A stretch of 64,000 nt of DNA. It comes from Candidatus Cloacimonadota bacterium (GTDB lineage Bacteria > Cloacimonadota > Cloacimonadia > JGIOTU-2). Position 1 is the stretch's first letter; each line of letters starts with the position of its first letter. A program made the position numbers. Where the stretch lies: NCBI GenBank assembly GCA_049903315.1, contig JBNGBT010000005.1, forward strand, positions 160,001 to 224,000, given 5' to 3'. Positions 40,201-49,200 of this stretch are shown here, piece after piece.

Positions 40201-43200
40201 ATGTATATGGATATAAAACAGAACATGAAAAATCTATTGACATACAACAACAAAGTTATAGTGCAAAAAAAATATCTTTAAAGCAATATGATGGAATAAC
40301 AAAGATACCAAAATGGGGAATTAAAGTACAAAGCTTTATTAATCAGATAGGAACAATTTTTGATGAGATGCATAGAGATATATATTTAGTTGAACCTGAG
40401 CCAACACATTTTGAAACTGATATATCAGATTTATCTGATAAAGCATGCAATATTTTTAATGCTGCATTAAGTTACGAATATATACAAAAAAAACCATCAA
40501 TGAAACCTAAGGAAAAAGGAAAAACAAAAAGAGAAGATTTTATTATAAATAGAATATTTGCCCCGCATTTTAATATATCTTATAAAATAAGAGGAAGAAC
40601 TGTAATACCATCAGGGGAACTGGAAAAATTATTAATAGGCAATGAAGAAGAAAAAAATAAATCAAGAAAAAATATTATAAAAATGAATACTAGAAGAGAA
40701 AGAGTTTTAGAAGATCAAAGCATATTAGAGATTTAATAGTGGTGGAAAAATGAAACTATACGAGAATTTTTCAATAAAAAGATTTGATAAATACTTGGCA
40801 GATAAAAGAAATTGGGATTTTTTTATTACTTGTACTAGTTTTGAAGATAGAAGTATCTCAGTTTCAAAGCAGTTAAAATCTTATAGTAGCAAAATTGAGA
40901 ATACAATAATTGTAAATTATCCTGAGCACGATAATAAAAATAAAAAAAAAAATAATACAAAAAAGATAATTAAAAATCTCAATGAAGTATCAAGAAACTT
41001 AATAATTTATGATACTAAGAGTGTGCTTGAACCATCGCTCGGCATCAAAGATTTTAAAGAATATATAAAAAAAAGATCAATAGAATTTAAAGAAAAAAAA
41101 ATACTTTTAGATATAAGTGTATTTACTAAACCATATTTCTTTTTATTATTAAAAATATTAAAAGAAGACTATAATGTAAATGTTGTGGATATCGTTTATA
41201 CTGAAGTATTAAATTATAATACAAACGATCAAAGAAAAGATTTATTTTCCATTGGCATAAACAGAATTGAACCTATACCGGGTTTCAATGGATCATATCA
41301 AAACGCAGAAGAAGCTTTGATTACTTTTATTGGATTTGAAGGAAATAGGTCATTACAAATATATCAACAAATTAGTCCTAAAATAATAGTAGTGGTTAAC
41401 GGAATGCCTTCTTTCCAGCCAAGCTGGCATATTATGAGTATGAAAAGGAATATAGAATTTTTAAAAGAATCAAAAGGTTATAAAAATCTATTCTATACAC
41501 CAACATATGATCCATTTGAAACAATTCGTGTATTAAAAAAAATTATAGATTTAATAATAATAGAAAATCCAAAATTAAATATTACTATTGCACCACTTAG
41601 CACAAAACCAATTTCCTTGGGAATAGCATTATATTCATTGTATCATAAAAATATAAAAGTTATCTATCCCTACCCTATTAAATATAATACAGATTCATCA
41701 AAAGGAGAGAATAAATCATGGATATATCGAATTAATTTTAATACATTACAAGAAATTTATTAATAACTTAATAATTATTTATAATGAAATAAATTTTCAA
41801 TATTTATATAAAAAATAAATAAGTTAATAGTTATGAGGATAAGTTTATTATGCTTATTTAATTTATTGATAATGCTGTCTGCTGAAGTTATAACTTTGTA
41901 TAATTGACATTATCAAGATTGAAATAGATAAATGTACAATATCATTGTATATTGCTTAAACCTTATCCTAACTTATGAGAGAGGTAAGGTGACGGTTACT
42001 CTTCCAATCCACCCTTCACAATATCCAAGATCCTCTGTGCGAGTGTGTGCTTTGAGTCCCTGCCTTTGAATTGTACTTCGCCTTTAGCATTTATCACAAA
42101 TATCTTATTATCATCGCTCTGGAAGCCGGAATCCGATTCTTTCACATCATTGGCAACGATATAGTCTGCCTGCACCTGTTTCAGGCGTTCATAACTCTTT
42201 GCAATGAGCTGTTTCTCGTTCAATCCGTGCTCTGCCTTAAATGCAACAAGAATGGTGGCTGGTGAGAGTTTTTTCACCTTTTCAATAATTTTCTCGGTGG
42301 GGGAAAGCTCAATGCTGAATTTTTTGGATGAGGGAAGTTTGCCTTGTGCTTTTTTCTCCAATTTCCAGTCTGCAACCGCAGCAGCGCTGATGAACACATC
42401 CACATTTTTCTCTTTGAGCTTAGAGGTAACGGCATCCAGCATTTCTTCGGTAGTTTCAACCGGAATATACTCACAACCTGCAGGAGGAGTGAGTTTTGTG
42501 GGACCGCTTACCAAAATGCAGTGAGCTCCTCTGCGAACTGCATCCTTTGCCAGTGCAAAGCCCATTTTCCCGGAGCTCTTATTCGTAATGTAGCGAATGT
42601 CATCAATGTATTCAATCGTTGGTCCGGCAGTTACCAGCATAGTCATATCCTGCAAGTCCTTTTTGTAGAGTTTCTGAATGACCATTTCTACCATAGTGTC
42701 CACGCTGGCGATCTTTGCCTTGCCCTCTTCTCGTACCGGTTCGATTACATCGATGTTCGCTTTTTTCAGCTTCTCAATATTTTCCAAAATGAAGGGATTC
42801 TTATACATGCTCTCGTGCATGGCAGGCACGATCATCACAGGAATGCCAGAGCCGATGGCAGAGGTCACTGTAGAAAGCACAGGCGTATCGTCGATACCGC
42901 ATGCGATTTTGCTGAGAGAATTGCCTGTTGCCGGAGCAATGAGCATAAGATCACAACTTTCTTCGTGTTCACCAGCCAGCCAGATGTGCTCGATTTTTCC
43001 GGTTAACTCGGTTGTTACTGGATTTCCAGTAGCCCACTCGAACATTGCAGGAGTCACGAGCTTCGTTGCTTCCTGGCTCATTACCACAAATACTTCTGCG
43101 CCGTGACGCATGATTTCACGTGCTAGGTCAACACTGCGCAGGCAGCCCACGCTTCCGGTTATGCCGAGGGCAATGCGTTTGTCCTGCAGTTCCTGTTCTT

Positions 43201-46200: not shown

Positions 46201-49200
46201 AGCCGGACAAGAGAATTCCATTTTTTTGTATGACTTTAAAGTGATCTTTGTGGTGATGTTCCTTTTTCCCGACAAGCGTGACATCATACTCGCGTGAGAT
46301 CACAGCTGCCAGGTAGGTGCCGATTGCACCGGCTCCGATTATAATGATATTCATGATAGCTCCCTCAAGCGCTGCAAAATGAACTGCAACGCTGATTTCA
46401 GATTTTGCTGATTATCAAAATTATCGCAGATTTTCTGTAATTTTTCAGTAGAATAATTCTTCATTCCTTTGATCTTTTCAGTCATAAGCGGAACTGTGCG
46501 CACAATATTATCCACAATTGTTATCTGCGCTTTCTGTGCAGTGCGGGAGAGGGGATTGAGGTCAACAGTGATGACTTTCTTACCTGATGCCACCAGCGCT
46601 TCGGTACGGTCTCCGTCTTCAAGCGGCACGAATACAACATCCGCAATAAAAATACCTTTCTTTGAAACGATCCTGCGTTTACTTTGCAGTTCTTCGATCT
46701 GAACAGTCTCATCGTCTCCCACTCCAAGGATTTCATGAGCGCCATGCTCCTTCATGTGTTTTAAAAGTTCGTTCTCGCGTTCTTTTGTTCTGTAAAAAAG
46801 ATTTATTTCAAGCGGTGTGTTTGCAGCTTTACCCAACTCGACGATCTCGTCAGGACAGAGCGAAGCTACATTTCCATTGAGAGAAAGTACCGGATGTTTT
46901 GCAAGGAGAAGCATTGCACAGGCAGCTTCAGTAGCTCGTTCCGCAAAGGATTGGGTTTTTTCTCCAATAAGATAATCAAAGCACTCACCTCTGCCGTGAG
47001 CGATCAGACCGGCTTTTGCAACGAGCCCTTTATCAAAGCCATCAATGAGTTTTTCACGAATGTGCAGGGACTGTGCTCTGGGATGGGAATCGGGTACTTC
47101 AATTAACATGGGGACCTCCTGTGCTGATGTCCGAAATATAGACCTTGCCGTATTCCTGAAGAATATTTCTCAATTCGTGGGCTTTTTTTGTCGGCTGAAT
47201 ACTGAAAACACTTTCGCCAAACAAAGGCATACTGCAGAGAAATCCATTTCGTTCCATTTTTTTTATAATGTCTGAGACTTGTCCGGTTGCGACTTCGATC
47301 TTCTTCACAAACCACTGTGAGAGTTCAAGAAAGCGTTCTACTGAGGGATCTTTGAGCAAAGTATCTACGCAGTTTTTTCCGAATGTATGCACCTTATCCA
47401 TCAAATTTTTATCAGAGAGGGCTTCCTTCGTTTGATAGGGACCGAAGTATAAGACAATCACTTTATAATCTTCATCGAGCGGAATGGTTTCCACTTTTCC
47501 GATGCCTGGACCACCAAATGCAACCCTAATCTCCAATCCGCCAGCAATCTCTGCCATGACTGTGCCCAATCCGCCTTTGTTTTCTACATCAGCTATATGA
47601 GCAAGCTGAAAGCACTTTTCGTCAGAAATGTCTATATTGAAAATTTTTCTTAGAGCAAGTGCCAAACTTAATGCACCGCTTCCGCTTGTTCCAAATCCCG
47701 CATTGAGAGGCATTTCCATTGTATGTTGAATGTTAATTATGTAGTTGTCTTTTATGTATTTATCAAAAAATTTATCCAAAAGCCAGTGTGTCAGTTCTGC
47801 ATCCGATCTTTCGCCATTAATGAAAACAGAAACTTCATTTTGAGATGAAGGATGCGCTTCGACTTGTGTGGTTGTTCCCCGCATCAAGTTCACGCCAGCG
47901 CCAAGAGAGCTGCTCTGCATCGGATCACTATCTATTTTTGAATAGAAAAATCCCGTAATATGATTCGGAGCCCATGCAGAAGCGGTTTTTGTATTATGCA
48001 TCAGAATTTTCTTTTGTTTCTTTTACAAAATTTGAAGTAATATTTTTCAATTCTGTGAGTTTGTTCTTCAGGCGTTTCAATGCTCTTTTGCTTTCATAAC
48101 TTTCCATGTCGATCTGCACATTTTCCTTAGTAGAAATATCCTCGACATTTCTCAGCGCTTTTTTCGCTCCCTTGATCTTGAATTTCTTTTCGTAGAGCAG
48201 GTATTGGATCTTTTTCAGAAGTTCGATATCCTTTTGTGTGTAGCGTCTGTTCGAGCCTTCCTTGCGTTTTGGATTGAGCTGCGGGAATTGAGTTTCCCAG
48301 AACCTGAGCACATGGGGTTTGACATCCAGAATATTACATACCTCGCTCATTGTGTAGTAATATTTTGTTTTTTGTAGAGTGATGCTTTTAATGGTCATTT
48401 TGCTCTTTTCATTACAAATAATGGTAAAATTATCGAAATTATTATGATCACAAAGCTGAACCAGAAACAGAGTGGTGCGAAGAGGTAGCCGATATTCACA
48501 AAAAAAGTTTTTCTATCTGATTCCTTCACGGTCAGTGTACTTGTGATATTTATTTTTTCATAGACATCCGTTTTGATAACAGTTTTTCCTTTGGGATTTA
48601 CAATGTAGGAGATGCCTGTATTTGCTGCGCGGATAAGAGGAAGTCTGGTCTCTACTGCACGGATCATTGTGTTATTTGCATGTTCATGGGGGAGCACAGT
48701 CTGTTTGAACCATGCATCGTTCGTGATGACCACAAGGACTTCCGCACCGATCTTGGCATATTTACGAGAAAGTTCAGGAAACACACCCTCAAAGCAGATC
48801 AAGAGAGAAAAATTCAGATTATCGATCTTGTATAGAGGATACTCTGTTCCAAACTCAAAATTCGCCTGTCCGAACTGTAATTTCTCAAGAATAGGAAAGG
48901 TGCTGAGGAGAGGGATCCTCTCACCAAAAGGCACAAGCCGTATTTTATTATATTTCTCGTGAAAAACACCAGCAGTGTCTATCATGGTGGCACTGTTGTA
49001 AAATTTATATTTTGGATGATTTTTTACCATTTCAACTGCATAATCAGGGAAACCAGTGAGTACAGATATCTTGTTATCCAATGCATAATTTTGAAGACGC
49101 TTCCTGTATTTGGGCTCATGCAGAATATAGGTGGGAATTGCAGATTCAGGCAGGATCACGACATCTACATCATTTACCTGCGCCAGGATACGCACCTGGT

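Follow-up and report, generated by a model that had tools for sequence, protein, structure and literature searches.

The window (the whole 64,000 nt stretch of DNA analysed, from a member of the Cloacimonadota genus Celaenobacter) carries the genes pok-pps-panE-panB-mfnA-coaBC on its minus strand, all six with intact reading frames (Table 1). A first-pass annotation had described a coenzyme A (CoA) operon of CoaBC, an aspartate decarboxylase (ADC), PanB, PanE, phosphopantothenate synthetase (PPS) and pantoate kinase (PoK), and our searches agree with it: CoaBC, MfnA, PanB, PanE and PPS (five of the six proteins) pass curated NCBIfam cut-offs, while the sole PDB match of PoK is the pantoate kinase 6JBC. 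PoK scored below the cut-offs of two NCBIfam models that are lineage-specific by name (175 against 500 for NF041122 and 143 against 380 for NF040725). The range had been counted as seven genes, six of which are the CoA genes; the seventh is a truncated 74-aa four-helix-bundle ORF between panE and panB (45188-45409), with inverted repeats on both sides whose 43-nt arms are 79% complementary. Longer copies of this ORF are found at the same panE-panB site in two of the ten other loci of the genus.

Table 1. Features of the CoA gene cluster and its native upstream neighbours, with positions in the window.
Feature	Position	Strand	Evidence and remarks
lnt, apolipoprotein N-acyltransferase, native	48395..49888	-	TIGR00546 310>133; ancestral block upstream of insertion
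MerR-family regulator, native, last host gene before acquired operon	47994..48398	-	PF13411
Pantoate kinase (PoK), GHMP family, Bathyarchaeia/Nitrososphaeria type	47099..48001	-	6JBC E 1e-44; Thr at Thermococcus Asp143 position
Phosphopantothenate synthetase (PPS)	46351..47109	-	PF02006 248 bits; NF041123 312>300; NF010324 366>227; 3WDK E 1e-81
Ketopantoate reductase (PanE/KPR)	45461..46354	-	TIGR00745 221>141; best PDB match 5HWS
Small insertion between panE and panB, not a CoA gene	45133..45450	-	Four-helix-bundle ORF, TIGR02436 42>24
Ketopantoate hydroxymethyltransferase (PanB), operon-borne, not native copy	44366..45124	-	TIGR00222 273>208
PLP-dependent aspartate/tyrosine decarboxylase (MfnA/ADC), putative beta-alanine source	43210..44379	-	TIGR03812 431>299; 3F9T E 9e-72; PLP lysine K230
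CoaBC (PPCS-PPCDC), archaeal type	41996..43231	-	TIGR00521 373>220; sole copy in genome

The merR gene overlaps the start of pok by 8 bp, and pok adjoins pps with an overlap of 11 bp. A scan for promoters and terminators showed no excess over chance (22 against 19.2 and 6 against 6.0), hence it is only the gene overlaps that suggest a co-transcribed operon. The enzyme functions of the six genes are predicted from their intact frames, conserved sites and dN/dS ratios, and MfnA/ADC would use aspartate as substrate, judging from its position in the operon and from the absence of PanD.

For the T. kodakarensis pantoate kinase we take the active-site residues to be Ser104, His131, Glu134 and Asp143. 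The Ser and His are retained in the genus, and Glu134 has become Asp and Asp143 has become Thr in all ten genus copies. In a site survey the Thr variant was present in 39 of 39 six-gene PoKs, in 21 of 21 Nitrososphaeria-like PoKs and in 79 of 149 representatives. A CoaC motif with His in place of Asn, combined with the lack of the clamp Cys, is, we presume, a feature of the M. jannaschii CoaBC enzyme; our literature search did not confirm it in print. The genus copies of CoaBC show this combination (6/6), as against the Asn and the clamp Cys of native Cloacimonadota copies (5/5), and the protein encoded here is 36% identical to the native CoaBC of the basal genome of the family versus 49-57% for those of six-gene archaeal operons. 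Cys84 and Trp129, presumably the residues tied to CoA feedback in the Thermococcus KPR, are not conserved in an alignment with the KPR encoded here.

Further we examined the bacterial CoA genes of this genome and of the phylum, where it should be noted that all genomes compared are incomplete assemblies, the present one being 96% complete. The domain counts given in the first-pass annotation could be reproduced: PPS (PF02006) occurs in 11 of the 232 phylum genomes, every one of them in Celaenobacter, and PanC (PF02569) in 195 of 232, with 0/11 in the genus and 1/10 in other genomes of the family. CoaX (PF03309) is present in 197 of the 232 and likewise in none of the 11. The claim that PanC and a recognisable pantothenate kinase (PanK) are missing also held, as tblastn with the PanC, PanD and CoaX proteins native to close relatives gave no match at E<0.05 in this genome, and a type I PanK among the four PRK-family kinases was ruled out (best 40 bits, cut-off 235). 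For PanD there was only a sub-threshold match (20.8 bits against a cut-off of 25), and a search for Fumble (type II PanK), run without a positive control, gave nothing in five genomes. The panE gene was present in this genome only among five family genomes tested. Archaeal PPAT gave matches of just 45-86 aa in the genome, none of them after coaBC. Bacterial CoaD and CoaE are present, so that the last two CoA steps are bacterial and CoA synthesis would be hybrid; the earlier suggestion of CoA made the archaeal way applies to the route up to 4'-phosphopantetheine and not beyond it.

The six genes are fused behind the native lnt-merR pair in all 11 genus genomes, with the merR-pok junction on one contig in each, which bears out the earlier view that the operon is present in the whole genus and arrived as one block. 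Outside the genus, lnt is followed by merR in nine of ten genomes of the order, and nothing of the operon was found behind merR in nine relatives. The dN/dS ratios range from 0.046 to 0.134 over all 26 gene-by-genome comparisons; purifying selection acts on all six genes as it does on their native bacterial neighbours, and operon dS is similar to that of these neighbours. The GC3 is still high in mfnA and coaBC.

Our comparisons support an archaeal origin of the operon. The closeness to Thermococcales and methanogens that had been proposed gave way to a different neighbourhood, as the nearest operons, identical in six-gene order, are those of Bathyarchaeia, though Thermococcales and methanogens lie outside our trees, the concatenated ones being built without Euryarchaeota, Asgard and DPANN (34 rows in the concatenated tree, quick tree search). 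Of 10 Bathyarchaeia regions, 4 have the identical order, as do 33 of 80 metagenome loci, against none of 71 other archaeal loci; identity across these 37 loci is 31-60% per gene. The Bathyarchaeia operons (pok-pps-panE-panB-mfnA-coaBC-PPAT) have archaeal flanks and share with Celaenobacter the PanB clade, the PoK Thr variant and the CoaBC motif, whereas the genus operon has bacterial flanks, lacks the trailing seventh gene, the archaeal PPAT, and branches beside, not inside, the sampled Bathyarchaeia. In its tree, PanB joins the PanB of the six-gene archaeal operons (100/99) and stands away from the native Cloacimonadota copies. An exclusive clade with the six-gene types is rejected by CoaBC alone (p 0.008) and is borderline for the concatenation (p 0.054), and the best-scoring PPS relatives are from Desulfurococcaceae (60-63%) and a Baldrarchaeia cluster (63%). 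Within a tree sample without Euryarchaeota, the donor thus appears Bathyarchaeia-like and not Thermococcales-like. A sister operon with a TA06 label exists, TA06-type genes being carried on contigs of 12-23 kb, and the proposal of a second bacterial lineage running this pathway does not stand beside it, the first-pass annotation itself counting several hundred bacterial genomes. A Zixibacteria-labelled operon was rejected as a second bacterial carrier, since its MfnA is 99.7% identical to one on a contig with archaeal flanks.

The four sister genera lack more than PanC. PanB, PanC and the CoaB and CoaC domains are each found in 0/9 of their genomes, and no PPS domain was detected in them either, while CoaD and CoaE are each present in 7/9, both misses being genomes less than 60% complete. 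This genome and all five sisters tested share an empty native panD-panC site; an empty coaBC site is shared by this genome and four of the five, the site not being found in the fifth. One sister retains a relic of coaX in its native position. No pantothenate kinase could be recognised in the sister genera, though CoaD and CoaE are kept. In the species tree (9,395 columns) Celaenobacter is nested among the gene-less genera at 89/98 and 93/99, branches that remain below 95% bootstrap. AU tests rejected both escape topologies, one with the four gene-less genera as a clade and one joining the genus with the full-pathway genome (p about 1e-5). A tree of RpoB only left the family backbone unresolved and placed the full-pathway genome inside the family at 56/15. 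Convergence, or an operon that had arrived earlier, could also account for the empty loci.

That the family had lost PanC first is supported in so far as PanC was lost before or at the family level; the loss was wider, comprising panB, panC, panD and coaBC, and the operon therefore most likely restored a missing pathway. Of the suggested replacement of the bacterial route at the root of the genus, the lateral archaeal origin stands, and a regain seems likelier than a direct replacement. The explanation that we favour, and think probable, is that the family lost the pathway, and that the genus regained it through a Bathyarchaeia-type six-gene block, with CoA finished by the CoaD and CoaE of the host. 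After the split of the basal genus, the family would have deleted panD-panC, coaBC and panB and depended on salvage, the decay of coaX coming later than these deletions. The genus ancestor would then have acquired the block, possibly via another bacterium, from a member of the Bathyarchaeia or of an unsampled lineage close to them, and inserted it behind lnt-merR, regaining prototrophy; the seventh gene of the donor operon was presumably not kept. The six genes would lead from ketoisovalerate and aspartate to 4'-phosphopantetheine in the archaeal order of reactions: PanB may form ketopantoate, PanE pantoate and PoK 4-phosphopantoate, whereupon PPS, with beta-alanine from MfnA, would give 4'-phosphopantothenate and CoaBC 4'-phosphopantetheine.

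The shared empty loci could be explained without an auxotrophic ancestor if the operon had arrived earlier, in the common ancestor of the five genera, so that the native genes became redundant and were deleted, and had later been lost twice to remain only in this genus. As the site behind merR is variable among the sisters, such loss could be traceless. Against this, two extra complete losses are needed on the species tree, no relic was found behind merR in seven gene-less sisters (best E 0.11), the gene-less sister genomes have no PPS, PanB or CoaBC domains, and the coaX relic of one sister tells that relics can persist; the high GC3 of mfnA and coaBC is a weak sign of later arrival. We regard an earlier arrival as unlikely, although worth keeping in view. 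A direct replacement at the genus root, where an ancestor with most of the bacterial route had it displaced by the operon and the sisters lost the pathway independently, would need two loci to have been cleanly deleted in the same way on three occasions, and it conflicts with the AU tests; the coaX relic does show more than one loss of coaX, and the backbone is not fixed by RpoB alone, but to us this course of events is rather improbable.

It may also be that the operon is only part of the route, and that salvage of pantothenate or pantetheine goes through a kinase we did not recognise, as it would have to in the sisters; their entry to 4'-phosphopantetheine may persist in this genus, and one 225-aa kinase is without a firm family. 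This kinase was found in only one of five relatives tested, which also speaks against it as a pantetheine kinase shared by the sisters, and with all six genes under purifying selection we give a partial route very little credence. Finally, an archaeal contig could have been placed in a bacterial genome by binning or assembly, and the 'Zixibacteria' MfnA illustrates that mis-binning of such an operon occurs. The junction conserved in the genus refutes an artefact in our case for practical purposes: in each of the 11 genomes, one of them labelled as a single-cell genome, the operon follows on the same contig from bacterial recJ, lnt and merR, and its dS is like that of the bacterial neighbours.

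Archaeal-type CoA genes in bacteria are already known. According to the part of the report available to us, sponge-associated Entoporibacteria have archaeal PoK and PPS, no PS or PanK, and a bacterial DPCK (Thomes and Lescure, PMC7883664), and Celaenobacter resembles them in this. The same part describes two archaeal enzymes without KPR, a link to sponge symbiosis and trees pointing toward Euryarchaeota, whereas Celaenobacter has six genes as one block, including PanB, KPR, ADC and CoaBC, and sisters without the pathway. As far as the accessible portion of PMC6650551 describes it, Thermococcus kodakarensis (PDB 6JBC, 3WDK, 5HWS) reaches 4'-phosphopantetheine through the same enzymes in the same order, its aspartate decarboxylase being of the PLP type; different here are the missing archaeal PPAT, the bacterial CoaD and CoaE and the Thr variant of PoK. 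The sister genera, with CoaD and CoaE and without CoaBC, resemble the pantetheine shunt, variant Apn (PanK, CoaD and CoaE without CoaBC), but they also lack a recognisable PanK, a pattern absent among the B5 variants tabulated in the part of PMC6593275 at hand. For E. coli, no uptake route for 4'-phosphopantetheine is known according to the available sections of a review (PMC12570885).

Taken further, we speculate that the family gave up synthesis to 4'-phosphopantetheine, that four genera, which have only CoaD and CoaE and lack any known pantothenate kinase, depend on a new pantetheine kinase or on an undescribed transporter that takes up a phosphorylated precursor, and that one genus reversed its auxotrophy with a six-gene archaeal cassette, which after a single crossing between domains also spread to at least one further bacterial lineage (TA06-labelled); for this account as a whole the chances seem to us slightly short of even. 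Since the enzymes belong to types already described, we claim no new chemistry. The locus would be a clear example of an essential cofactor pathway being lost and then regained across domains, marked by the empty native loci, by an insertion site that is fixed and by an operon of a recognisable donor type. Such a case would also remove the suggested tie of the archaeal route in bacteria to sponge symbiosis and further weaken PoK and PPS as domain markers, and the gene-less sister genera make up a defined genome set for finding the missing uptake or kinase step.

A literature search, with subscription journals outside its coverage and most hits judged by their listings, found no paper on this operon or on further bacterial PoK/PPS lineages. 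The annotation had reported no occurrence of 'pantothen' in two Cloacimonadota genome papers; the word is absent from the main text of PMC8542988 and from that of PMC12590816, and the same applies to five supplementary files of PMC8542988. The pok and pps genes of Celaenobacter are already listed, without comment, in a published KO table (2025 supplement).

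The first-pass annotation had proposed one operon for CoaBC, a PLP-type decarboxylase (MfnA), PanB, PanE, phosphopantothenate synthetase (PPS) and pantoate kinase (PoK), and all six genes were found intact in one block. Successive genes share 4 to 22 bp, and only panE and panB are separated, by a gap of 336 bp; pok also takes in the last 8 bp of a MerR-family gene, its stop included, and this merR in turn shares 4 bp with lnt. Five of the six genes reach curated NCBIfam cut-offs, PoK lies under those of two lineage-specific models, and the only PDB match of PoK is the T. kodakarensis pantoate kinase. 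The gap contains a four-helix-bundle ORF, truncated and bordered by inverted-repeat arms, but no CoA gene. This mini-element has six related matches in the genome; longer copies sit at the same site in two other genus members (G213 and G218), and it is reduced or absent in the remaining ones. The low-GC island holds genes for a cytosine methyltransferase, an unassigned 388-aa ORF, PRTase-CE, an ORC-CDC6-like ATPase and a 337-aa ORF, and looks like a defence island. Genus members differ in the region beyond coaBC.

Coordinates of the features discussed (window positions, or locus and positions)
Feature	Position	Strand	Remark
pok, pps, panE, panB, mfnA, coaBC (reading order)	41996-48001	-	six intact ORFs
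four-helix-bundle mini-element (TIGR02436)	45133-45450		inside operon, inverted-repeat arms
low-GC island	35041-41763		22-29% GC, converging on coaBC
coaX relic of a sister genome (G229)	L386:7446-7784		112 aa, native locus
long uridine-kinase-like protein	L406:578-1957
long uridine-kinase-like protein	L405:535-2250
other Bathyarchaeia CoA cluster	L377:10066-11385		HPS-RraA fusion (NF005442), no panB
other Bathyarchaeia CoA cluster	L379:9033-10346		HPS-RraA fusion (NF005442), no panB
other Bathyarchaeia CoA cluster	L106:5853-7184		HPS-RraA fusion (NF005442), no panB

We reproduced the earlier count of PPS in 11/232 genomes of the phylum, precisely the 11 of Celaenobacter. Eight of the 10 other genus loci carry all six genes in order on a single contig, the remaining two are interrupted by contig ends, and the merR-pok junction is present in 11/11. 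The operon genes show dN/dS of 0.046-0.134 in 26/26 comparisons; the values of the neighbours lnt, merR and recJ are 0.023-0.082. Contamination is excluded as the source of the operon. Two genus genomes (G212 and G220) have extra panB copies outside the operon (L217, L218 and L219), which cluster with native-type PanB; one copy is split, and one of the genomes is 6% contaminated.

PanC and CoaX occur in 195/232 and 197/232 genomes of the phylum and in 0/11 of the genus, so that the PanC absence noted before is borne out, and tblastn of this genome with the native PanC, PanD and CoaX of relatives gave no match at E<0.05. A type I PanK among the four PRK-family kinases, raised earlier as a caveat, can be dismissed (top score 40, cut-off 235); one of the four is a uridine kinase, two are longer proteins that carry a uridine-kinase-like domain, and the last is a PRK07667-like kinase. 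The N-terminal part of one long protein matches the start of ribonucleotide reductases (ATP-cone-like). Type II PanK was found in 0/5 genomes by a search run without a positive control. All 11 genomes of the genus have the bacterial CoaD and CoaE; the archaeal PPAT was searched for in this genome and is absent.

Activities were assigned by analogy with the characterised CoA pathway of T. kodakarensis (as far as described in the available text of PMC6650551), and the operon would thus convert ketoisovalerate via ketopantoate, pantoate, 4-phosphopantoate and 4'-phosphopantothenate to 4'-phosphopantetheine, with aspartate as the source of beta-alanine. The host's own CoaD and CoaE would complete CoA; the route would match that of T. 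kodakarensis up to phosphopantetheine, but with these bacterial enzymes it is not a fully archaeal pathway. The one-carbon donor of PanB is usually supplied by SHMT, which was found in this genome. At the Thermococcus positions that we take to be the PoK active site, Ser and His are retained, while Glu134 is Asp and Asp143 is Thr. This Thr occurs in 39/39 PoKs of six-gene archaeal operons and 21/21 Nitrososphaeria-like PoKs, against Asp in 52/53 other TACK PoKs, hence we regard it as a naturally occurring variant that marks where the gene came from. The CoaBC motif has His and no clamp Cys in 6/6 genus copies, presumably a sign of archaeal-type CoaBC, as opposed to Asn and Cys in 5/5 native Cloacimonadota copies.

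Further we examined the rest of the family. One basal genome (G223) is the sole one of ten to have PanB, PanC, CoaX and CoaBC; its PanD match, at two contig ends (L201 and L203), holds an internal stop (TAA), which may reflect decay or an assembly effect. The nine others, from four genera and 6/9 of them at least 92% complete, lack PanB, PanC, the CoaB and CoaC domains and PPS (each 0/9), with CoaD and CoaE each in 7/9. In G223, panD and panC are flanked by an MFS gene and glmS, a contig break falling within this stretch, and coaBC with an SDR gene is flanked by a 960-aa and a 270-aa gene. The former site is empty in this genome and 5/5 sisters tested, the latter in this genome and 4/5 sisters (not found in one). 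The coaX relic of one sister, with an in-frame internal deletion (~residues 83-225 gone), indicates that coaX was lost later and more than once. In the part of Table S9 of PMC12590816 available, named genomes show the same three patterns (35/42 column heads): pok, pps and mfnA stand under Celaenobacter, and two TCS60 columns list coaD but no panB, coaBC, coaX or panC.

In a supermatrix tree (21 genomes, 9,395 columns; EF-Tu, Map, Adk, SecE and MerR left out; three rows dropped for the first tree and four more for the reported one) G223 is outermost and the five other genera group at 89/98, with (g2, g4) at 98/99 and Celaenobacter with (g5, g6) at 93/99. AU tests reject that the four gene-less genera form a clade (p 1.1e-5) and that Celaenobacter forms one with G223 (p 9.5e-6). 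RpoB alone leaves the backbone unresolved, with G223 inside at 56/15. Behind the ancestral lnt-merR block varied genes but no operon relic were found among nine relatives. The history with the fewest steps is a single loss and then a single gain; the operon could also have arrived earlier and been lost twice. The replacement suggested by the first-pass annotation thus stands in that an archaeal operon is in and PanC out, but a regain of a missing pathway is more likely than a direct swap, as the sisters lack panB, panC and coaBC and the genus nests among them.

As to the donor, PPS has its highest scores with Desulfurococcaceae (60-63%) and with a cluster from Baldrarchaeia (63%), but the six-gene order occurs in 0/71 of these loci. 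The identical order was found in 33/80 metagenome loci and in 4/10 regions from Bathyarchaeia genomes; tested flanks of such loci are archaeal by NCBIfam (TATA-binding protein, Dph5, archaeal riboflavin kinase, RpoH), and coaBC is followed by an archaeal PPAT. Genus PanB is sister to that of the six-gene operons at 100/99, separate from native and other TACK PanB, and the nearest named relatives of MfnA and PoK are Bathyarchaeia. The closeness to Thermococcales and methanogens read earlier thus gives way to a Bathyarchaeia-like donor, indicated by gene order and PanB, with Euryarchaeota, Asgard and DPANN left out of the CoaBC and concatenated trees. A donor inside sampled Bathyarchaeia is argued against by CoaBC, which places the genus outside Bathyarchaeia and Nitrososphaeria and rejects an exclusive clade with six-gene types (p 0.008), and by a quick five-gene concatenation, which gives a trichotomy with these two groups at 100 and a borderline result for that clade (p 0.054); it should be noted that bacterial rows in both trees differ in composition. 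A fair statement is that the donor was Bathyarchaeia or a close unsampled relative.

Outside the genus the nearest MfnA (61%) and CoaBC (62%) belong to clusters of consecutive accessions that bear the label candidate division TA06, and a PPS cluster (61%) has six contig sizes in common with that of MfnA. In the trees they join the genus with a support of 100, and the labelled carrier could also be the donor lineage. An unnamed CoaBC (P0382, 59%) branches as sister of the TA06-labelled protein and adds a third lineage to those with such an operon. A 'Zixibacteria' MfnA (P0108, locus L297) was rejected as a bacterial carrier, being 99.7% identical to an MfnA from a contig whose flanking genes are archaeal; its label is likely mis-binning, and because of this we treat the TA06 host as a label only.

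Bacteria with PoK and PPS are already published for sponge Poribacteria (PMC7883664, as far as available), and pok and pps of Celaenobacter appear in a supplementary KO table of PMC12590816, though not in its main text. The literature searches turned up no paper on this operon, on where it came from or on how the family lost the pathway; what is new is the arrival of a whole six-gene block and a probable regain. The sisters pose the sharper question, since they retain CoaD and CoaE but show neither CoaBC nor a recognisable PanK (types I and II tested in 4/9), unlike the pantetheine-shunt pattern in the available part of PMC6593275.
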